A stretch of DNA of 64,000 nucleotides, from the NCBI GenBank assembly GCA_012518315.1, contig JAAYSL010000084.1:20336-84335 (forward strand). The letters run 5' to 3'. A program made the translations under genes and the position numbers. The notes under the pieces were generated by a model that saw only the letters and a program-made list of their open reading frames with translations, was not told the DNA's origin and made no database searches. Every line of letters begins with the position of its first letter. The stretch's first letter is position 1. This document shows, one piece after another, positions 3,400-14,707 of this stretch. The stretch comes from Bacillota bacterium (GTDB lineage: Bacteria > Bacillota > Limnochordia > DTU087).

Positions 3400-4017
3400 T
3401 TAATGCAGTCTTCGCAAAACCCCGATGACCTTCCCTAAGATCTGTGCATTAGTAGTGATAATCGGCTCATATAGGGGGTTCTCCGGCTGTAGCCGGATAT
3501 GCTCCGGCTCTCTAAAAAACCGCTTAACAGTGGCTTCATCCTCTAGAAGCACTACAACTATGTCCCCGTTAATGGCATCTGGTTGCTGGCGGACCACGAC
3601 GTAATCACCATCAAGAATTCCTGCCTCAATCATGCTATCCCCCTGGATGCGCAACATGAAAGTGGCCTCGTCAGAAGCAAAATCCCGGGGTAGAGGAAAA
3701 TAGTCCTCAACATTTTCTACCGCTAGGATAGGCTGTCCCGCTGTAACATTACCCACCACTGGTACAGCAATGAGGTCTTTCATGATCTGGCTTTCGGCCA
3801 ACTCATCGTCAAGAACCTCGATAGCTCTGGGCTTAGTGGGATCCCGTCGGATATATCCCTTGCTCTCCAAACGTCTCAAATGCCCATGTACGGTTGAGCT
3901 ACTACGCAACCCAACAGCATCACCAATCTCCCGGACAGAGGGTGGGTACCCCTTCTCCCTAACTTGTTGTTTAATGAACCCCAGTATTTGACTTTGTCGT
4001 TCCGTGAGCTCTTGCAT
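3400..4017 (-). CDS. lexA: LexA repressor (SOS regulator, S24 peptidase)
   Basis: N-terminal wHTH ([29 protein letters not shown]) and C-terminal S24 autopeptidase (GDSMIEAGI..., VKRF). Cheo-type boxes lie upstream. Confidence 0.92.
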
Positions 4018-4101
4018 AGGTGGCTCCCTCCCGAAGCTCTAACTTAGCATACACGTTTCAAACATACCGCTTCTATTATAGCACGGCAACAGCCTTATTG
4101 C

Positions 4102-4114
4102 AAACGTTCGTTCG
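4102..4114. promoter_or_regulatory. LexA (Cheo-type) box candidate, lexA-proximal
   Basis: AAACGTTCGTTCG; the reverse complement CGAACGAACGTTT fits CGAAC-N4-GTTCG with one mismatch. Confidence 0.5.
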
Positions 4115-4275
4115 CAGTGATATATAGTCTTTGTCGAGCTTGCCATCGGTGTTGGAGACTGAGGATTGTCGGGAGGAGGCATCGCGTCAGTCTCGCTTCG
4201 AGGTATGACAACGTATACGAAAGCATTTTCATGACACACAAACGACGACATTCACGGATTCGCAGCTTGTAGCAC

Positions 4276-4289
4276 CGAACGCATATTCC
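4276..4289. promoter_or_regulatory. LexA (Cheo-type) box candidate
   Basis: CGAACGCATATTCC versus consensus CGAACNNNNGTTCG, one mismatch. Confidence 0.55.
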
Positions 4290-4308
4290 AAAATTCCATA
4301 GATCACCC

Positions 4309-4337
4309 TTGACGGAAACAACTGTTCGTGGTAAAAT
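4309..4337 (+). promoter_or_regulatory. sigma-A-like promoter of the yneA-like gene (TTGACG-17-TAAAAT) with a LexA box in the spacer
   Basis: -35 TTGACG at 4309-4314 and -10 TAAAAT at 4332-4337 with a 17-nt spacer. The spacer contains GAAACAACTGTTCG (Cheo-like, 4314-4327). Confidence 0.55.
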
Positions 4338-4364
4338 CAAACCAGGCATACATCTGTTCGCAGC

Positions 4365-4376
4365 GGACAACTGTTC
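4365..4376. promoter_or_regulatory. LexA (Cheo-type) box candidate
   Basis: GGACAACTGTTC versus GAAC-N4-GTTC, one mismatch. Lies between the promoter and the RBS of the yneA-like gene. Confidence 0.45.
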
Positions 4377-4392
4377 TTGGGAGGGCTAAGAC

Positions 4393-4767
4393 ATGATGGA
4401 AAGGAATCGTGCTCAGACACGCTGTAGGAAGACAATCACGCTGTCACAGGAAAACCCGTCTCATTGCGGCACTGTACGTCAAAGCCGACAAACCCGCGGC
4501 ATTGGCTACATTCGCCTTAAGCAATTGCTGGTCCTAGTGATTATATTACTCGTAGCGACACCGATCTTTGCAGCCATGATATCCAATAATGTGCCGGAGC
4601 CAAATTACGAGACCGTGGTTGTAAGTCAAGGAGATACGCTATGGACCATTGCCAAGAGAGTCAAACCAAGAACCGATCCCAGGAAAACCATCTACGAGAT
4701 TAGGCAGCATAATGAGCTGAAATCGGTAGATCTAAGGCCTGGCCAGACTTTGTTCATACCGATCTAG
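4393..4767 (+). CDS. yneA: SOS-induced cell-division inhibitor, YneA-like (TM plus C-terminal LysM)
   Basis: Divergent from lexA and preceded by LexA boxes. Single TM (LLVLVIILLVATPIFAAMI) and LysM motif (VVVSQGDTLWTIAKRV...PGQTLFIP). RBS GGGAGGG. Confidence 0.7.
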   Translation: MMERNRAQTRCRKTITLSQENPSHCGTVRQSRQTRGIGYIRLKQLLVLVIILLVATPIFAAMISNNVPEPNYETVVVSQGDTLWTIAKRVKPRTDPRKTIYEIRQHNELKSVDLRPGQTLFIPI

Positions 4768-4803
4768 TCTAGGACTTGGGTATAGGCTATAAGGTGATGC
4801 AAC

Positions 4804-4926
4804 CAGATGATTTCTAAGTGAGCTGGAAGCAGTGCTGGAGGCTAGTGGCCAATGATTAGAGGCTATCGGCCGTTTCCAATTGCCTTTTAGATGGTTTTAC
4901 AGTCCATCTGGAGGCTATCAGACCCG
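4804..4926 (+). repeat. Degenerate direct copy A of an about 110-bp segment of the xer N-terminal coding region
   Basis: Roughly 88% identical to 5405-5514, with a 6-bp indel and several substitutions. An in-frame stop shows it is non-coding. Confidence 0.8.
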
Positions 4927-5003
4927 GGACGATAGATAGAAAGTCATTCATGCATTGTCATGGCGGCCAGGTGTGGCGAAAATGGTCGGATGACGAGCAC
5001 GCC

Positions 5004-5031
5004 ACTTCGCATAATATATCTTCTGCGAAGT
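5004..5031. other. dif-like tyrosine-recombinase core site (11-bp inverted arms around a 6-bp AT-rich centre)
   Basis: ACTTCGCATAA-TATATC-TTCTGCGAAGT sits inside an 11-bp perfect-stem palindrome (5001-5034). It matches 19/28 positions of the Bacillus dif site as I recall it (ACTTCCTAGAATATATATTATGTAAACT). It lies 200 bp upstream of the xer gene. Confidence 0.5.
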
Positions 5032-5228
5032 GGCCTTGGAGTCACAGAGGTGAAGACTTTAAAAAGCCAAGGTTCGCCTATAGATAATAAATGTGAATGA
5101 ATCAGTCGGCTGCTCCAGAGATACTCCCCCTGCTGCCTCCTTCCTTGCTCTTCCCCCAGGTTTACAGGAAATGCTTATTGGCTGCTGGAATAGATACATA
5201 GAACCATACGTTATCGGAGGTATCACTT

Positions 5229-6269
5229 GTGCTGGACTTTGACTTACAGGTAGAAAGATTCATTGCCGCTCTAGGCATTAATAAGAGCTTGAATACCGCA
5301 AAAGCCTATAGATCTGACCTAAGACTTCTTAAGTTACATCTAGTCTTAGCCCGGTGTCCTTGTGTTATCCCGCCCCGAAGCAAAAGCGCTTACAGTGAGC
5401 TGGAAGCAGCGCTGGAGGCTAATGATCAGAAGCTATCGGCCGTCTCTAATCGCCTTTTAGATGGTTTTACAGTCAATCTGGAGGCCATCAGACCCGATGA
5501 TTTGGTGGGATATTTTCTCTTCCTGAAAGAGACCCAAGGCTATGCCCAGACCACGATCAACCGCAAGATCGTGGCTGTGAGACGTTTTTTCAAGTATCTT
5601 TTCCAACACGAACTGCTACCGGATCCTTCTCTGATCTATGATCTGGAAACCAAGACTATCCATCGTAATGAAGCACCTTTACATCTAACTGCCGAGGAGG
5701 CTTTTCACTTTCTCGATACCGTGCGGCGTCATGGATCTGAACGAGACTATGCCATGTTTCTCATCATGCTTAGTATGGGGCTCCGAATTGGCGAGGTTGT
5801 ACAGATGAATGTCGACGATATTGGGCGAGACACTCGGTTCTACCGAGTCACCGGCGGCAAAGGCGGTAAGAATCGGCCTGTACCGGTTCCCGGGGCTGTA
5901 CGAGAAGCCGTAGCAAGTTATAAGCGAGTTCGGCCTAGAGATAAAGCTAAGGGTCAGCACCGCCTGGCTTTGTTTCTCGGCAACAGATATACCAGGATTA
6001 CACCTAGGGCTGTTCAACAGAAACTAAAGGAATATGTGGAGCTAACTCAGCTACCGGAAAGCAAAAAGCTGATGCTCACGCCCCATAAGCTACGACACAC
6101 CTTCGCCACGGCTCTTTATCTAAACGGTGAGGATTTGCGAACCCTGATGCGGCTTTTGGGCCATGAGAACATCGCCACGACCACGATTTATACACATGTA
6201 GATGCTGAGAAATTGATCGCTTCTCTGGACAAAAATCCTTTTGCGAAGGTAGGACAAGAAGAGCACTGA
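5229..6269 (+). CDS. tyrosine site-specific recombinase, XerC/XerD family
   Basis: C-terminal catalytic signature HKLRHTFATALYLNGEDLRTLMRLLGHENIATTTIYTHV and an N-terminal SAM-like domain (NTAKAYRSDL). GTG start after GGAGG. Carries an about 50-aa insertion in the N-terminal domain. Confidence 0.85.
   Translation: MLDFDLQVERFIAALGINKSLNTAKAYRSDLRLLKLHLVLARCPCVIPPRSKSAYSELEAALEANDQKLSAVSNRLLDGFTVNLEAIRPDDLVGYFLFLKETQGYAQTTINRKIVAVRRFFKYLFQHELLPDPSLIYDLETKTIHRNEAPLHLTAEEAFHFLDTVRRHGSERDYAMFLIMLSMGLRIGEVVQMNVDDIGRDTRFYRVTGGKGGKNRPVPVPGAVREAVASYKRVRPRDKAKGQHRLALFLGNRYTRITPRAVQQKLKEYVELTQLPESKKLMLTPHKLRHTFATALYLNGEDLRTLMRLLGHENIATTTIYTHVDAEKLIASLDKNPFAKVGQEEH
5405..5514 (+). repeat. Copy B (in-gene original) of the 110-bp segment duplicated at 4804-4926
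   Basis: Seen by direct sequence comparison. Encodes ...SELEAALEANDQKLSAVSNRLLDGFTVNLEAIRPDD within Xer. Confidence 0.8.
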
Positions 6270-6515
6270 GAGAAGCGCAAAAATCTGCCAAAAACAAGAC
6301 AACCTAGCGTCACTCCCTGTGACCATTCCCCTGCAAGTTACACATTCTTACGGGTTAGGGCCTACTAGGAAGTGACGCTACGTGGATGAGAAGTGATTAC
6401 CTATTTGGCTACCTAATGAGGTATAAGGTCTGGGACATGTGAGGAGTACTTAGTCTTGAGCCCCTAGTCCTCATAGTTCATCTCTATGTTCATCCCTATA
6501 GTTGAGATAGTTTGC

Positions 6516-9500
6516 TCATACCTGCTTTCCAGATAAAACCTCTATTCTAGCCGACGCCAAGCCGGAAGGAAGCGTTTTCCCTTCTAGCGTATTTGCGGAG
6601 GTGTTGGTAACTGCCAGAGTAACTGTATTACTGCTATCATGACATAGGTCCGAAACGTCAAACACATATGGCGCCCACAGGCGACAACCTGCTTCTTCCC
6701 CATTGACCCAAGCTTCCACCACTCCATCGTGGCCATCAGCTGTCAGCATGAGCCGTTTACCTTTCCAACTCCCGGGCAGATCAAAGGTCGTGCTATAGGT
6801 GCCCGTGCCAGAGTAAAAGGGGTAGCCGGAATCTGTCCAAGAACCCACGCCTAGCTTGGTTCTAGGAGCACCTAAACTGTAAGTGGCAGTCCCCGATTCC
6901 GTATTCGGTGAGGAGTCAGCCATACAGACACTAAAATCCCCCACCACCTTTAGCTTATCGACAATACCTCCCCATTCAGAGTCAACCTCTATTTTGACCG
7001 CCAGTTGATTCACTCCCTGGCGGACATATGCCTCCAATGGTACGGCAAGGATGTCACAATCCAAAGACGAAGCCTTGAGATTATCGCTGCTTACTAGGCT
7101 GCCATTGACATAGAGCTGGTATTTGCCCAGAAAACCATCGATAAGCATCTGGAGTCTATTGGGCAGATGCTGTAAATCTATCTTAGTGCGGTACCACAGA
7201 GTAGTTGGTGTAGGTACATCGCCTACATAGCTCCGGACGACTCTCATCCAGGGACCGTTGGTGGCCCAAACCCACTCCGTATCATCGAACTCCGGCAGAT
7301 GATATCCCTTGGATAAACCTTCTCCCTTAGGATCAATTCCTAGCCGCCAACTATCGATGAGCAACACATTATCTCCGCTCAGGGTGAAGTCCCATTCGCC
7401 CTTCAGATCGATGGGTGTCAAAACGTCGTTTGGCTTCGAGAATTCTGAGGACTCAATCTCCAGCTCCGGTTGTCCTGGTCTCACCATAAGAAAGATTGCC
7501 TGATGGGGCCACATATCTAGTTTAACCGTCATTTCGCTGGTGTCCAGGGCACTAACCACCCCATTCGCCGTCTCACCGGTTTCGGGGTTCCAGAGCTCCG
7601 GATGTCCAATCTTGCTTAGGGTGACCTGGATTGTTTTGTTATTGGCAGTAGTATTGACCAAAAAGTACAGGTCTAGATCGTCAGCTTGCCTGTGCAGGCA
7701 GAAAATATCCTGATCATCAATGTGCACTCTCCGATCGACTGCTGCGTCGAGCCCTTGAGCAAGCAGCTCTTCGGGATGGCTTTTACTAAGCCCGCCTGGG
7801 CTCTGCAAGAAACCCACATAGCCGCCTCCGGGGTGCGTTCCGGCATGCAATATAGCTCGATTGGCGCAGTCTTTTGAATCCCCCACTACTCCCGCCCCTT
7901 GGCTAATGACGGCAGCTGGACTTGCCTGTCCTAAATCAACGTTAAAGGTTTCTCGGACAAAATCCAGTACCTTAGGGTCACTAGCTACCACATCCGAATC
8001 CTCTGGTAGCATTGTGCAGGCTAGAAGACTGCCTCCCTCATCGAGAAACTCCTGCAGCTTATTTACTGTGTCCCTCTTTAGCATGCTCGTAGCAGGTAGG
8101 ATCAGAAGCGAATAACGATTTTGTCCTATAGACATAGCTCCATTTTCTACTATTGTCTCACTGATGGTGTCTTCGTCTATGTAATCAAAACCATAGTGGA
8201 GACGTAGTAGGGCATCAGTGAGATACGCTAGGTCAGATTCAATGATATCTGCCAAGGGGGTGCGTACCTGGGAAGTGTAGTTTTGCCAGTAGCTTCTTAC
8301 GGGATATAAAATCGCCATATCGGCCACAGGTCTACCGGTACTAAGAAGATAGCTTAAGCGGGAAATGTATTCGCTAAACTGCCCATAGTACTTCCACCAG
8401 GACTGCTGGTAGAACTGACAAGGTGGCCAATCTCGCTTCCTGTCCCCTTCAATACTATAATGTCCACCATGGGGGTTAAAGAGATTTACACCAAGGACGT
8501 ATTCCCAATCAGCCATGGTTTTCATATCCAGCATGGTGGTTGCCCACCCAAAACCACCGATGGATTCACACAGTACTCGTTTACTACCCACCTGGTGAGC
8601 AACAGAACTGGCTGCTTTGAGGGCTACATGCAGATCGGGCCTTTCCCTTGATCCCTTGGGGGAGAAAATATGGTCTACACCGACGATATCAAAGTGTTTG
8701 AGGTGGGTCATGACATTGCCTTCAGTGCGGGTTGCCAAATGGAACCATTCTTCAAACAGAAGATGACCTGTGAAAAGCAGATCATGATCATGACACCATT
8801 GCCTAACCCTCTCATAGAACACTGTGGACAGACGCTCTGTGAGCGTATTCCAGAAATCATATCTTACTATTCTTGAGTTGGTATCGACATCGTAGAACAG
8901 TGAGGCTAACCGTGACAAGAGATCATAGCCATTCTCAGTCTGAAAGAGCTCTCTCATCCCTTCTGTCCAGGGAATAAAGCCATTTTCCGGGTTAATCTGG
9001 TAATAGTGCATGGCTGGCTCGTCAGTATAGAACCCAGGGATGACATCACCAAAGTACTCCCCTACCCGCTTCGCATAGTGCTCATGGGTATATTCTATGA
9101 ACTTATCGACAGCCTTGGGGTTTAAAGCATCTATATACCATGGAGTCTGCTTCTCGATGAAGTGTAGTACTGCCCATTCACCCTCGGGAACCTCCCAAGC
9201 CATGATCATCGAGTCAAAGGAAATATATTGATTGAGATTAATCGCTCGGCTCCAGTTTTTCCTCCCGCTTTCAAGTGGTACTGCCCAGGCAGCAATAATC
9301 CTCCCACCATCAGTATCTAGATACCGAGCATCAGTTGTCTTGAGAAAGCTATAACGGGAGCCTATCTGATGGGTCTCGACTAGCTGTAAAAGTCGCTGGG
9401 TAAGCTCAGGGTGATCCTCACATACCTTAAGCCCAGCGGTCCCGCTAGGCCAATTATACTCATCGTAGATCCATAGCCTCATTCCGATTTTCTTAGCTTC

Positions 9501-9719
9501 CTTGCAGACTATCTCTATACAGTCAAACCATTCATCTGACAAATATGGCGTAATCAAACCATAGCGGCCATGGATATATATATCCGATATCTGCTTATCC
9601 CGAAACTCGTGTAACTGTCGAACCAATTCCTCTGGTCTGAGCCTAGAGTTCCACATCCAAAAGGGCTGAATGGAGTAATCCAGTGATGGTTGCTTGAATT
9701 CTGTCCCATGGAAAATCAC
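6516..9719 (-). CDS. large cytoplasmic glycoside-hydrolase-like protein (1067 aa; candidate GH106 alpha-L-rhamnosidase type, family assignment tentative)
   Basis: Uninterrupted 3.2-kb ORF. N-terminal PFWMWN...WIYDEYNWPSG motif block typical of a large glycosidase family, and a C-terminal galactose-binding-like beta-sandwich region. No signal peptide. Confidence 0.75.
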   Translation of the reverse strand: MIFHGTEFKQPSLDYSIQPFWMWNSRLRPEELVRQLHEFRDKQISDIYIHGRYGLITPYLSDEWFDCIEIVCKEAKKIGMRLWIYDEYNWPSGTAGLKVCEDHPELTQRLLQLVETHQIGSRYSFLKTTDARYLDTDGGRIIAAWAVPLESGRKNWSRAINLNQYISFDSMIMAWEVPEGEWAVLHFIEKQTPWYIDALNPKAVDKFIEYTHEHYAKRVGEYFGDVIPGFYTDEPAMHYYQINPENGFIPWTEGMRELFQTENGYDLLSRLASLFYDVDTNSRIVRYDFWNTLTERLSTVFYERVRQWCHDHDLLFTGHLLFEEWFHLATRTEGNVMTHLKHFDIVGVDHIFSPKGSRERPDLHVALKAASSVAHQVGSKRVLCESIGGFGWATTMLDMKTMADWEYVLGVNLFNPHGGHYSIEGDRKRDWPPCQFYQQSWWKYYGQFSEYISRLSYLLSTGRPVADMAILYPVRSYWQNYTSQVRTPLADIIESDLAYLTDALLRLHYGFDYIDEDTISETIVENGAMSIGQNRYSLLILPATSMLKRDTVNKLQEFLDEGGSLLACTMLPEDSDVVASDPKVLDFVRETFNVDLGQASPAAVISQGAGVVGDSKDCANRAILHAGTHPGGGYVGFLQSPGGLSKSHPEELLAQGLDAAVDRRVHIDDQDIFCLHRQADDLDLYFLVNTTANNKTIQVTLSKIGHPELWNPETGETANGVVSALDTSEMTVKLDMWPHQAIFLMVRPGQPELEIESSEFSKPNDVLTPIDLKGEWDFTLSGDNVLLIDSWRLGIDPKGEGLSKGYHLPEFDDTEWVWATNGPWMRVVRSYVGDVPTPTTLWYRTKIDLQHLPNRLQMLIDGFLGKYQLYVNGSLVSSDNLKASSLDCDILAVPLEAYVRQGVNQLAVKIEVDSEWGGIVDKLKVVGDFSVCMADSSPNTESGTATYSLGAPRTKLGVGSWTDSGYPFYSGTGTYSTTFDLPGSWKGKRLMLTADGHDGVVEAWVNGEEAGCRLWAPYVFDVSDLCHDSSNTVTLAVTNTSANTLEGKTLPSGLASARIEVLSGKQV

Positions 9720-10348: not shown

Positions 10349-11446
10349 GTGTTGTTATGTTCCTATTCCCCACCTGTATCATTTCGTAGCAATCTTAGGC
10401 ATAGAGTCGGCCTTTTTCTGATGCTCATCGGACTTAGTCTACTTATCAGCGGGTGTTTTGGAGGCCTTGGCCAAACCGTATCATATCCCCCACCAGCACC
10501 TAAGGGTCCCACCGGTGGCGTGGCTGTAAAGGCTTTACTCATCTCCGATAGCGGAGATGGGCATACCATCGGCCGAGTGATAGCCACCCTAACGCGAGGT
10601 AGCCAAAGAATAGAGCACAACCTGGTGGTAGATCTAGATAGAATGGTAGCTTCAGGCAACTTATCCAAGGTTCTTATCGGCACCTGGAATCTGCGTGTCG
10701 ACGTCTATAGCAAACGAGACGAACTACTCTACACAGGATCAACTAGTGTGTTGATTGAGGAAGGCAAAACTATTAGCATAGAGCTTCAGCTTGGAGCCGC
10801 TCCCGGCACACTGATCATGGTGCTAGATATCAGTGATTTTGACAGCTATGAGCTCATCAAGGGTAAAATCATCATCGGCACCGGTGAGCAACCTGAGCTG
10901 GTCAAGGAGTTTACAAGAGGAGAAGACTCCCTGCTCACAGTCACTATTGATGAGCTAGACCCCCGGAGTCACGATCTGCGAGTGGAACTGTATAAGAACA
11001 CTTTCCACTCCTACAATCGCATCTATCAAGGGCCGTGGGAGGTTATTGCTATTCAGCCGGGCAAGATCCTGGAGATGAGTTGGCATCCGGCTTGGGGGTG
11101 TATTGAGGTCATCGGTGTGATTGACGCCCCTCCCCCCTCCCCTAGCGATGTAAGTGCAACTTTGCAGGATGACAGCATATTCATAGCTTGGACTGCTGTA
11201 AGACCTGTAGAGGATGATCTGGAAGCATATCTAGTATATGCGCAGCTTCATGCTTTTACTGGGTTTCAACTTATCGATACGGTACCCAAATCTGCGACCT
11301 CGTATTCGTATCGACCAGATACTTCATCTTATCCTGCCGGGGTGAGCATCCCCATCCAAATTGCCGTATCGAGCCTAGATGCCGGAGGAAACGAGAGCAG
11401 TCGTAGTAGCCCTGTGATAGTACCATGGCCCTCTGCCGGGAGTTAG
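10349..11446 (+). CDS. lipoprotein with C-terminal Fn3/Ig-like domain
   Basis: GTG start after AGGAGG. Lipobox LLISGC. Beta-rich C-terminal region (SIFIAWTAV...YLVYAQ) resembling an Fn3 domain. Confidence 0.6.
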   Translation: MLLCSYSPPVSFRSNLRHRVGLFLMLIGLSLLISGCFGGLGQTVSYPPPAPKGPTGGVAVKALLISDSGDGHTIGRVIATLTRGSQRIEHNLVVDLDRMVASGNLSKVLIGTWNLRVDVYSKRDELLYTGSTSVLIEEGKTISIELQLGAAPGTLIMVLDISDFDSYELIKGKIIIGTGEQPELVKEFTRGEDSLLTVTIDELDPRSHDLRVELYKNTFHSYNRIYQGPWEVIAIQPGKILEMSWHPAWGCIEVIGVIDAPPPSPSDVSATLQDDSIFIAWTAVRPVEDDLEAYLVYAQLHAFTGFQLIDTVPKSATSYSYRPDTSSYPAGVSIPIQIAVSSLDAGGNESSRSSPVIVPWPSAGS

Positions 11447-11580
11447 TGTCTTTAAGCGATTCGTCACAGTTTACCTAACAAAGCCAATTTCCTAATCGCC
11501 TAGAGAAAAGCGGTTCTTAGGGCAGGCGTTTTTACCTTTTGTCTCGAAGTAATTATGTCGGAGTGTGGGGAGGTAAAGCG

Positions 11581-12642
11581 ATGACAGCACGTGTAGGAGT
11601 TCCGAGATCCCTAGCATACTATGCATTTTACCCACAATGGAAGACGTATCTTGAGGAGCTTGGAACGGAAGTTGTACTAAGTCCCCCTACCACAAAAGAT
11701 ATCATAGATCAGGGCATCAAATATACGGTGACTGATGCCTGCATCCCCATAAAGGTGTTCCATGGGCATGTTGCTGCCTTGATCGGACAGGTGGACTATA
11801 TTCTGATTCCCCGATTGGTCAGCATCGATGGCGATGCTACCCTTTGTCCCAAATTCCTTGGGCTCTCCGATATGATCAAAGCCTCAATACAGGGTATCCC
11901 TCCTCTTTTGACACCCAGGCTGGATATTCGGGACGGACGGTTTGCCCCCATGAAGGCCTGGCTACGGGTTGCCAAAAAACTGGGAGCGGGCCGCCAGAAG
12001 GCCTGGCTTGCGTATCGGAAAGCAGTGCAAGTAGGACAATACTATGAGGCACTATTGGCCAACCATATGCTTCCTAGCGAAGCCATGTTAGCTGCAGATA
12101 AATGGCGGGCATCCTGGCCAAAGAAGCGGCCATTGAGTTTGGCTGAGGCCAGAAGCGGTATTGCCTCCGCCAAGGCATCGAAGACGCCAATGGAAGCCAC
12201 TGCAACCAGTAGGCAGGTCCAACTGGCCGTTGTTGGCTATCCATACATGCTGTACGATGACTATGTCACCTGTGGGTTGCTCACGAATCTGAAGAGCTTG
12301 GGTGCCAATATCTTAACACCTGAAATGGTTCCGGCCAAATGTCGGAAAGCACAGGCCAAGAAGCAACCCAAATACTTGTTCTGGCACTATAGTAATCAGG
12401 TGATACGGGCCACATATCATTTCTTCGAAGAAAAAATGATCGATGGCTTGATTCATGTGACGGCTTTTGGCTGTGGACCTGATGCCATGGTGGATAAGCT
12501 GCTTGAACTAGATTGCCGCAAACAGAATCGGTTACCCTACCTTTCATTATGTTTAGATGAGCATACAGGTGTAGCTGGAGTAATGACCCGTCTCGAGGCC
12601 TTTGTAGATATGTTAGTGCGTAGGAAGGGTGATTTGCGGTGA
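11581..12642 (+). CDS. DUF2229 'CoA-substrate-specific enzyme activase'-associated protein, paralog 1
   Basis: ATG 11581 after GGGGAGG. C-terminal block VTAFGCGPDAMV...LCLDEHTGVAGVMTRLEAFVDML is typical of DUF2229. Confidence 0.7.
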   Translation: MTARVGVPRSLAYYAFYPQWKTYLEELGTEVVLSPPTTKDIIDQGIKYTVTDACIPIKVFHGHVAALIGQVDYILIPRLVSIDGDATLCPKFLGLSDMIKASIQGIPPLLTPRLDIRDGRFAPMKAWLRVAKKLGAGRQKAWLAYRKAVQVGQYYEALLANHMLPSEAMLAADKWRASWPKKRPLSLAEARSGIASAKASKTPMEATATSRQVQLAVVGYPYMLYDDYVTCGLLTNLKSLGANILTPEMVPAKCRKAQAKKQPKYLFWHYSNQVIRATYHFFEEKMIDGLIHVTAFGCGPDAMVDKLLELDCRKQNRLPYLSLCLDEHTGVAGVMTRLEAFVDMLVRRKGDLR

Positions 12643-13736
12643 AGATAACTTTCCCACACATGGGAACTTCATGGATAGGCTTCAAGACTCTGATCGAAGG
12701 AATAGGCCATGAGGTAGTGCTTCCCCCTCCCCCCACCAAACGCACATTGGATCTTGGCACCAAATACGCACCGGAGTTTGCGTGCCTCCCCTTTAAGGTA
12801 CTCTTGGGCACATATTTAGAAGCCATTGAGTTGGGCGCTGATACGATTATCTCTTCCGGTGGGGTTGGCCCTTGTCGAGCTGGGTACTATACGCAACTGC
12901 AAAAGCGCATCCTGCAGGAACAGCTCGGCCACGATGTTAGGGTAATCACCTTTGAACCACTTAACCGCAACTGGGTAGGAACCTATAGGATTTTTCGGGA
13001 TTTGATTAGGGTTAACCTGCGAGAATTCATAGGGTTACTCTGGCTTACCTGGCAAAAGCTGCTGGCCCTAGATGCCATCGAACGGGAAAGTCACCGGGTA
13101 CGACCATTGGAGGTTAATACCGGATCCACAAGCCGCGTAGTATCTAAGGCGTTTGCCGATATCGACAAAGCTGATTCAGTCAAGAAAGTCAAGGATGTGA
13201 CTAGAGATAATCTAGAGAAGATGAACAGCCTTCCCCAGGATGCCCACCGACATCCTCTCAAAGTTGGTGTGATTGGGGAGATCTATGTGGTGCTAGAACC
13301 TTTTGTTAATCTCGATGTTGTCGAGACATTGGGTCATATGGGTGTGTACGTGCACCGTTCCATATTTCTTACTGATTGGACCATAGAAAACACGGTTCTA
13401 GATGCGTTTAGGGTGGAGGGTGAGATGAATATCAAAAAGGCCGCCCGACCCTATTTGCCGGAGATGATTGGTGGTCACGGTCAGAATAGCATTGGTGAAA
13501 CCATTCTTTATGCCAAGAAGGGCTATGATGGTGTAGTTCAGTTGGCCCCCTTTACTTGCATACCGGAGATAGTTGCCAAGAGCATTATTCCTAAAGTCAG
13601 TAGGGACTATAACTTACCGGTTCTAACCTTGATGCTAGATGAGCAGACGGGCAAAGCCGGTATCAGTACTCGTTTAGAGGCTTTTGTGGATCTATTGGCT
13701 ATGCGGCGGGTACGACTCGGAGGTGAGATTGCTTGA
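12639..13736 (+). CDS. DUF2229 protein, paralog 2
   Basis: GTGA start/stop overlap with the upstream gene. Paralogous C-terminal block LAPFTCIPEIVA...LMLDEQTGKAGISTRLEAFVDLL. Confidence 0.7.
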   Translation: MKITFPHMGTSWIGFKTLIEGIGHEVVLPPPPTKRTLDLGTKYAPEFACLPFKVLLGTYLEAIELGADTIISSGGVGPCRAGYYTQLQKRILQEQLGHDVRVITFEPLNRNWVGTYRIFRDLIRVNLREFIGLLWLTWQKLLALDAIERESHRVRPLEVNTGSTSRVVSKAFADIDKADSVKKVKDVTRDNLEKMNSLPQDAHRHPLKVGVIGEIYVVLEPFVNLDVVETLGHMGVYVHRSIFLTDWTIENTVLDAFRVEGEMNIKKAARPYLPEMIGGHGQNSIGETILYAKKGYDGVVQLAPFTCIPEIVAKSIIPKVSRDYNLPVLTLMLDEQTGKAGISTRLEAFVDLLAMRRVRLGGEIA

Positions 13737-14707
13737 ACGCATATCTAGGTGTAGATGTCGGTTCTGTGAGTACTAACTTTGTACTAATGGATGAGCAGGG
13801 GAAACTACTCGATAGTCTATATATCCGTACCAAGGGCCAGCCTATCCAAGCGATTCAGGCGGGCCTAAAAGCCTTGGAGAAGCAAGTACCCCCCTCCCTC
13901 AATGTGTTAGGAGCGGGAGCTACTGGGTCAGCCCGCCAATTGACTGGTGTAATTATTGGAGCCGATATTGTCAAAAACGAGATCACCGCCCACGCTGTGG
14001 CCGCTATGCATTGTGTTCCGGATGTACAGACAGTGCTTGAAATCGGGGGTCAGGACTCCAAACTGATCATTATCCGAGATGGTGTCGTAGTCGACTTTGC
14101 CATGAATACCGTCTGTTCCGCTGGTACCGGTTCTTTTCTGGATCATCAGGCGGCACGGTTAGGTATTCCCATTGAAGAGTTCGGAAAATTGGCGTTACAA
14201 AGTAAGCAACCCGTGCGGATTGCTGGCCGTTGCTCTGTTTTCGCCGAATCAGATATGGTACACAAACAGCAAATGGGCCATAAGACACCGGACATTATTG
14301 CTGGTCTGTGTGATGCCTTGGTGCGAAACTACCTAAACAACGTAGGTAAGGGCAAATCCATAGCAGCCCCTCTAGTCTTCCAAGGCGGAGTAGCGGCCAA
14401 CCAAGGTATTAGACATGCCTTTGAGAAAGAACTTGGTGTTCCGGTAATCATCCCGGAGGATTTCGGAGTAATGGGAGCACTAGGAATGGCAATCCTAGCG
14501 AAAGAGAATAGAGCCCAAGGCAAAAAAACCAGTTTCCGTGGCTTTGGTGCCAGTGAATTGAGATTTGCGACCCGGAGTTTTGAGTGTAATGGGTGTCCTA
14601 ACCAATGCGAGATTGTGGAGATTAGGCAAGATGAAACAGTCTTGGCTCGCTGGGGTGATCGGTGTCACAAGTGGCAAAACACTACTCGGGGCGAAGCTGC
14701 TAGTTAA
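13733..14707 (+). CDS. BadF/BadG/BcrA/BcrD-type ATPase (HgdC-like activase) with Cys-rich C-terminus
   Basis: N-terminal LGVDVGSVSTNFVLMD and ASKHA motifs (LEIGGQDSK, NTVCSAGTGSFLD), plus C-terminal CNGCPNQC...C...H. TTGA overlap with the upstream gene. Confidence 0.75.
   Translation: MNAYLGVDVGSVSTNFVLMDEQGKLLDSLYIRTKGQPIQAIQAGLKALEKQVPPSLNVLGAGATGSARQLTGVIIGADIVKNEITAHAVAAMHCVPDVQTVLEIGGQDSKLIIIRDGVVVDFAMNTVCSAGTGSFLDHQAARLGIPIEEFGKLALQSKQPVRIAGRCSVFAESDMVHKQQMGHKTPDIIAGLCDALVRNYLNNVGKGKSIAAPLVFQGGVAANQGIRHAFEKELGVPVIIPEDFGVMGALGMAILAKENRAQGKKTSFRGFGASELRFATRSFECNGCPNQCEIVEIRQDETVLARWGDRCHKWQNTTRGEAAS

Follow-up and report, generated by a model that had tools for sequence, protein, structure and literature searches.

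The 64-kb stretch of DNA analyzed here (hereafter, the window), which comes from an uncultured species from biogas reactors, contains a direct repeat of about 100 nt. The downstream copy of this repeat (copy B) resides within a gene for a Xer-like tyrosine recombinase, and the upstream one (copy A) lies in the spacer between a yneA-like gene and a dif-like site. The repeat is real and far beyond chance. Copy A is an insertion, dispersed and derived from neighboring DNA, and does not constitute a new system; judging from its decay and its restriction to a single lineage, it is most likely a functionless relic of the species' own xer gene that was copied after the split from the closest sampled relatives. 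The two copies and the gene that harbors one of them are as follows.

4817..4926, plus strand: copy A, located in the yneA-dif spacer; it duplicates xer codons 56-89, is non-coding and is decaying
5394..5496, plus strand: copy B, the source segment within xer, encoding S56-P89 (SELEAALEANDQKLSAVSNRLLDGFTVNLEAIRP)
5229..6269, plus strand: xer, the gene for a Xer-like tyrosine recombinase of 346 aa (Pfam Phage_integrase and SAM_1)

The blastn alignment of the two copies shows 86.4% identity over 110 columns (E~1e-27), with 8 mismatches and one 7-nt gap; without the gap, 94 of the 103 positions (91%) are identical, and the longest unbroken run of identity is 23 nt. The repeat of about 88% identity described in an earlier, sequence-only reading is accordingly real and above the 70% below which that reading would have been abandoned, with the location of copy B corrected from 5405-5514 to 5394-5496. 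The copies are separated by 467 nt, which corresponds to an offset of 577 nt, and the intervening sequence consists of single-copy spacer, the dif-like site, the promoter region and the first 55 codons of xer, as in all relatives. A tandem array was considered and rejected given that this interval is single-copy and orthologous to the spacer, dif and 5' coding sequence of the relatives, and that a blastn search of the 64-kb window yielded no third copy of the repeat.

The key elements of the locus that surrounds the repeat are the following.

3400..4017, minus strand: lexA, divergent from yneA (TIGR00498, 256 bits)
4393..4767, plus strand: yneA-like LysM gene of the SOS cell-division suppressor family (NF010723, 66 bits; cut-off, 60 bits)
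5004..5031, unstranded: dif-like 28-mer, ACTTCGCATAATATATCTTCTGCGAAGT, a near-perfect palindrome between copies A and B (DNA fold z = -5.7)
6516-9719, minus strand: GH106-like gene, in the window species only, between xer and the downstream operon

Copy A starts 50 nt past the yneA stop codon and ends 78 nt before the dif-like 28-mer, within a yneA-xer spacer of 461 nt. Across more than 20 related loci, the 28-mer hardly varies; in all of these, it is located about 200 nt upstream of xer and beside lexA and yneA, and it is the sole strongly conserved element of the spacer apart from the ribosome-binding site and a short block that resembles a promoter. This conservation bears out the earlier observation that the upstream copy adjoins a candidate dif site. 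The 28-mer matches the dif sequence of B. subtilis in 20 of the 28 positions. An exact search of metagenome contigs with the 26-nt dif core recovered two additional, distantly related loci in which the synteny is preserved, and no new conspecifics. At ~5-6 kb, the GC skew turns from positive to negative, and the main gene strand from plus to minus, as seen with a left flank of only 5 kb. Thus, a conserved dif-like site is physically linked to xer at a putative replication terminus, as in single-module dif-xer arrangements, and the lexA - yneA - dif-like site - xer module, found in an uncultured, Limnochordia-like clade of Bacillota from biogas reactors, may represent a dif-linked Xer system placed beside the SOS genes. 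The insertion of the GH106-like gene is a second lineage-specific rearrangement adjoining the dif-like site.

No site conforming to the LexA box GAACN4GTTC was found near the locus, including positions 4018-4392 between the divergent lexA and yneA genes, so that this pattern yielded no sign of control of yneA-xer by the SOS response. The latter region contains the repeats ACAACTGTTCGTGG and ACAACTGTTCTTGG (4318-4331 and 4367-4380), which are related to the LexA box and may represent a variant SOS box. On the other side of the locus, in the relatives L070, L075 and L078, xer is directly followed by an unknown gene of ~365 aa and the DUF2229/BcrAD operon (10349-14707 in the window).

Copy A is represented in all 8 conspecific assemblies that reach the site, which come from at least 8 samples. 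Five of these (L064-L067 and L069) are base-identical to the window over positions 4700-5560 or the portion reached; L076 and L077 contain the complete copy A, with 32 differences from the window in L076 and 4 differences in 1877 nt in L077, and L080 includes only part of copy A. Copy A is fixed and base-identical in many samples, and an assembly artifact is not at issue because the same structure was recovered in different studies with different assemblers. An upstream copy of own coding sequence is present in none of the 17 related loci with at least ~400 nt of upstream sequence (L001-L004, L006-L012, L070-L072, L074, L078 and L079). The comparison of copy numbers among related loci that was proposed at the outset hence yields no upstream copy in the 17 relatives and one in the 8 conspecifics. 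Over the homologous segment, copy A is 91% identical to copy B of its own genome and at most 73% identical to copy B of any of the 15 orthologous genes, and being so much closer to its own copy B, it must have originated within this genome. The exact 23-mer from the unit had no match in the JGI metagenome contigs.

The closest relative that lacks copy A is L079 (protein P0126, 94% aa identity), which has an empty site with collinear flanks and allows us to delineate the junctions of the insert.

4803..4813, plus strand: motif s1, CCAGATGATTT, of which 4803-4811 is native spacer (CCGGATGAT in L079)
4812..4816, plus strand: left junction filler TTCTA, unalignable to L079 or to the source segment
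4927..4930, plus strand: right junction GGAC, filler or diverged native sequence, with homology to L079 resuming at GATAGATAG
5493..5503, plus strand: motif s2, CCCGATGATTT, at or just past the 3' end of copy B, microhomologous to s1

The alignment with L079 is clean from the yneA stop codon to ...GCAGCCGGATGAT and resumes at GATA.ATAG...CATTGTCAT.GCGG, continuing from there to the dif-like site. Between these aligned flanks, L079 contains ~19 nt (CCACGAAATACACGAGATG), and the window contains TTCTA, the 110-nt unit and GGAC. Within s1, the TT at 4812-4813 is new and is the same as the bases that follow the motif inside xer. The motif CCRGATGATTT was originally described as flanking the unit on opposite sides in the two copies; it is indeed found before copy A and after copy B, at 4803-4813 and 5493-5503, slightly displaced from the positions first given. 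The explanation that had been attached to it, namely, circular permutation or tandem amplification of the unit, does not survive the comparison with L079, where CCRGATGAT is native to the empty site and the flanks are collinear. The CCRGATGAT that precedes copy A is thus native to the spacer, as opposed to being the tail of a permuted unit, and the rearrangement as a whole is a simple insertion accompanied by a small deletion, with nothing further added.

The recombinase falls below all the NCBIfam cut-offs for the known Xer families, with scores of 184.5 against 335 for XerC, 180 against 330 for XerD, 168 against 220 for XerA, and 118 against 267 for XerS. Compared with E. coli XerD, it is longer by ~40 residues in the stretch from residue 34 to residue 85, so that the insertion in the N-terminal domain reported in the sequence-only reading is present but is shorter than the ~50 residues suggested. 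The region encoded by copy B is represented in all 19 protein relatives at 64-93% identity, and remoter homologs, including Clostridia proteins named XerC in their source records, contain partial or longer versions of it. In an AlphaFold2 model built with 22 sequences, the insertion is predicted with a pLDDT of ~90 to form helices 54-64 and 71-78 and strand 81-83. The insertion is old, conserved to 64% identity and predicted to be ordered, and therefore was not made by the duplication, contrary to the earlier proposal that linked the two; copy B is the source. The insertion is an ancient, structured feature of the clade that predates the duplication, which simply copied part of it. Copy B itself appears to be subject to purifying selection because, where the copy that changed can be identified, its changes are third-position synonymous, with the exception of the polymorphic codon 83. 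At the place of xer residues 41-88, low-complexity extensions of much greater length are present in the relatives P0020 and P0022. Residue 83 lies within the predicted strand 81-83 of the insertion, and all more distant relatives have D in this position.

Copy A, by comparison, bears two disruptive changes.

4844..4850 (placement within a few nt), plus strand: 7-nt insertion in copy A relative to copy B, defined by alignment, which shifts the frame
4857..4859, plus strand: TAG stop codon in copy A, in place of CAG (Q67) in copy B

The indel, initially counted as 6 bp, consists of 7 nt in the alignments, so that copy A is frameshifted; the in-frame stop reported along with it is there as described. 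The copies differ by 9 substitutions, the one that creates the stop codon included, of which 5 would be protein-changing if copy A were translated (A61V, Q67stop, K68R, R75C and position 83) and 4 are third-position synonymous. In 4 of the 5 protein-changing sites, all 4 outgroups have the state of copy B; in the remaining one, K68R (5431), the two closest outgroups share the state of copy B and the two more distant ones that of copy A. Conversely, at the synonymous sites 5444 and 5486, copy A retains the outgroup state, which indicates a silent change in copy B. Although these are only 9 sites, a small sample, the distribution of the substitutions is what would be expected if the fragment evolved neutrally and its parent gene under constraint. 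All the hallmarks of a dispersed partial gene duplicate are in place, that is, similarity to the parent, a broken frame, an empty site in a relative and relaxed constraint in the copy, and with the frameshift and the TAG stop, the original perception of the upstream copy as a decaying, non-coding duplicate of a part of xer holds.

The differences among the conspecific assemblies suggest that copies A and B might have exchanged short patches of sequence. At codon 83 of xer (5475), the window has AAT (N); L077 and L080 share GAT (D) with the outgroups, and L076 has CAT (H), as does copy A. The L080 contig starts inside copy A and contains bases of the B type at three adjacent markers (4874, 4877 and 4881), with bases of the A type further right. 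Among the 6 differences between L076 and L080 in 1485 nt, 4 switch a copy to the state of the other copy, and given that the repeats account for 11% of this stretch, the corresponding binomial probability is ~2e-3. Between the window and L077, 6 of the 7041 positions differ, and two of these are within copy B. Altogether, there are two candidate conversion tracts, in L076 at 5475 and in L080 at 4874-4881, in low-coverage or contig-end sequences: the signal of exchange comes from one 3.5x SPAdes contig and one contig end. These patterns suggest short-tract gene conversion between copies A and B in both directions, and with 91% identity retained over a distance of 577 nt, occasional exchange of this kind is probable. 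The differences between L076 and the window in xer include 12 in the 40 nt between 5580 and 5619 and 5 in the 13 nt between 5753 and 5765, with few elsewhere. This clustering suggests that the alleles are mosaics generated by inter-strain recombination.

The most resilient, even if improbable, alternative to the relic interpretation takes exchange one step further and casts copy A as a silent donor cassette, with conversion from it, or to it, purposefully diversifying the structured N-terminal insertion of the recombinase. All the patterns listed above, namely, the N/D/H variation in codon 83 among near-identical strains with H being the state of copy A, the B-type markers in copy A of L080, the switches between L076 and L080, and the placement of two of the window-L077 differences within copy B, could be accommodated by this scheme. 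However, there is a single cassette that carries a stop codon and a frameshift, so that longer tracts would destroy xer; five assemblies are base-identical; the AAT allele of the window did not come from copy A; the signal comes from a 3.5x contig and a contig end; and no such cassette is present in any relative. The idea of a variable cassette, which figured in the sequence-only reading, is retained in a weak sense, through the hints of short-patch exchange. A version of this scheme that seems even less probable is that copy A is kept as the conversion partner of xer, supplying variants, such as D83H, to the structured insertion and being itself refreshed from the gene. If true, this would amount to a one-cassette variation system that acts on a chromosome-maintenance recombinase beside its dif site.

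Within the favored interpretation of copy A as a relic, the structure of the junctions allows us to outline the most likely route of its origin. During the repair of a stalled fork or a break in the GAT-rich spacer between yneA and dif, about 105-110 nt of xer, comprising codons 56-89, would have been copied to a point 467 nt upstream of the source, either by template switching or by synthesis-dependent copying of DNA located close by. The 8/9-nt microhomology CCNGATGAT, which is located to the left of the target and to the right of the source, probably helped, and the event would have left behind the short fillers TTCTA and GGAC, with the loss of ~9-19 native bases. At least two template switches, or else the joining of an already copied fragment, would be required. 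Subsequently, copy A would have drifted freely, accumulating the 7-nt insertion, the stop codon and four amino-acid changes, with copy B remaining under constraint. Judging by the junction sequences, we infer that copy A probably arose by microhomology-assisted break repair ~80 nt from the conserved dif-like site.

The left edge of the target (CCRGATGAT) and the right edge of the source (CCCGATGAT) have 8 of the 9 bases in common. We estimate the chance of such a match at exactly those two positions at ~1e-3 to 1e-5; the same kind of match anywhere in the 5' region of xer is not unusual (63 of 500 shuffles). Fillers at the junctions together with a small deletion are typical of such repair events, and no template was identified for the junction fillers. 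A one-step crossover at s1 and s2 was tried and rejected because it predicts a tandem duplication in which the unit precedes the motif, the reverse of the observed order; no single-step s1/s2 model could be built that would give the order motif, unit, spacer. The dif region of E. coli is prone to division-associated breaks, which would make a repair scar near the dif-like site of the window unsurprising.

The position of the repeat invites another, very unlikely explanation, that copy A is a scar of IMEX integration or excision by Xer at dif or a remnant of a partly deleted tandem duplication of the dif-xer 5' region. The dif-like site is bracketed by copies A and B, the CCNGATGATTT motif occurs before copy A and after copy B, and this terminus region has undergone another lineage-specific change, the gain of the GH106 gene at 6516-9719. 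Nevertheless, no second dif-like site exists in the 64-kb window, even with 3 mismatches allowed, and there is no foreign DNA, with everything except the unit and the 4-5 nt of filler at each junction being collinear with L079. Further, the motif is mostly native spacer, and a tandem duplication predicts the motif and native spacer right after copy A, contrary to the observed arrangement. Nor does the spacer contain any xer fragment other than copy A, according to tblastn and Smith-Waterman searches with shuffles; an 18-nt match of 4933-4950 to xer nt 19-35 was dismissed for lack of significance (20 of 500 shuffles). Being conservative, Xer recombination does not produce a scar with filler and a deletion. 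Accordingly, the suggestion that the repeat is a footprint of past recombination at dif is at odds with an insert that is located 78 nt from the 28-mer, shows 4-5-nt fillers and a deletion, and has no second site to go with it.

Similarly slim are the prospects of copy A being a functional RNA or DNA element, such as part of the 3' UTR of an SOS-induced yneA, a leader of xer or a second binding site for a protein that has another such site within xer. Copy A is fixed in the species, and it may be co-transcribed given that there is no terminator-like site between yneA and xer. A scan for promoters and terminators found no terminator or convincing promoter around copy A, DNA folding revealed no unusual hairpins at its junctions, and a terminator-like hairpin at 5485-5508 was discounted as unstable in the DNA form (z = +1.1). 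Against a function, no Rfam family matched anywhere in 3900-6600 at a permissive threshold; copy A and xer have the same orientation, and therefore an RNA made from copy A would be unable to pair with the xer mRNA; copy A is absent from all sister lineages that keep the lexA-yneA-dif-xer layout; and its substitutions look neutral. Homologous deletion between copies A and B would take out dif, the promoter and 55 codons; given the requirements of RecA, with a maximal identity of 23 nt, such deletion should be rare.

A template-repeat/variable-repeat pair of a diversity-generating retroelement, which is brought to mind by two ~100-nt repeats of ~90% identity, one coding and the other one not, is effectively refuted by mismatches that are mostly T/C transitions rather than adenine-specific, by the invariance of copy B in five assemblies, by the lack of a reverse transcriptase among the neighboring ORFs scanned in part of the window, and by the location of the target in the N-terminal domain of a recombinase, not in a C-terminal variable domain.

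By itself, the duplication is of little importance, and the surrounding locus is more useful. Its value is that of a clean natural case of a short, nearby-copied insertion, with an empty-site comparator, adjoining a probable replication terminus, and it is slightly increased by the gene conversion that may occur between the parent gene and its pseudogene fragment.

Among known systems, copy A resembles the relics of MMBIR/FoSTeS/MMEJ-type events, with which it shares a short nearby template, microhomology at the junctions, filler, a deletion in the target and neutral decay. The difference is that, in the present case, the mechanism is deduced from junction sequences only and the microhomology is on the sides opposite to those that tandem duplication in one step would require. 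The MMBIR, FoSTeS and MMEJ models have been documented mainly in eukaryotes and E. coli.

The Neisseria pilS/pilE and Borrelia vls systems have in common with copy A an unexpressed partial copy near an expressed gene and signs of short-tract transfer. Unlike those systems, the locus described here includes a single cassette with a stop codon and a frameshift, shows no variation at high frequency, and has as its target a housekeeping-type recombinase instead of a surface antigen. The IMEX that integrate at dif similarly involve a rearrangement near a dif-like site, but in our case, there is no second dif and no foreign DNA, and the junctions are off the dif core.

With respect to context only, the appropriate comparison is with linked dif-xer modules, exemplified by XerS/difSL (PMC1914069; reviewed in PMC5357621). 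The protein encoded in the window is nearer to XerC, XerD and XerA than to XerS, yet is below all curated cut-offs, and the site is a 28-nt, almost palindromic sequence that resembles canonical dif, within a module that is located beside lexA-yneA. What the two have in common is a dif-like site just upstream of a dedicated xer gene, the conservation of the pair as a unit, and the association with a switch of GC skew and gene strand.
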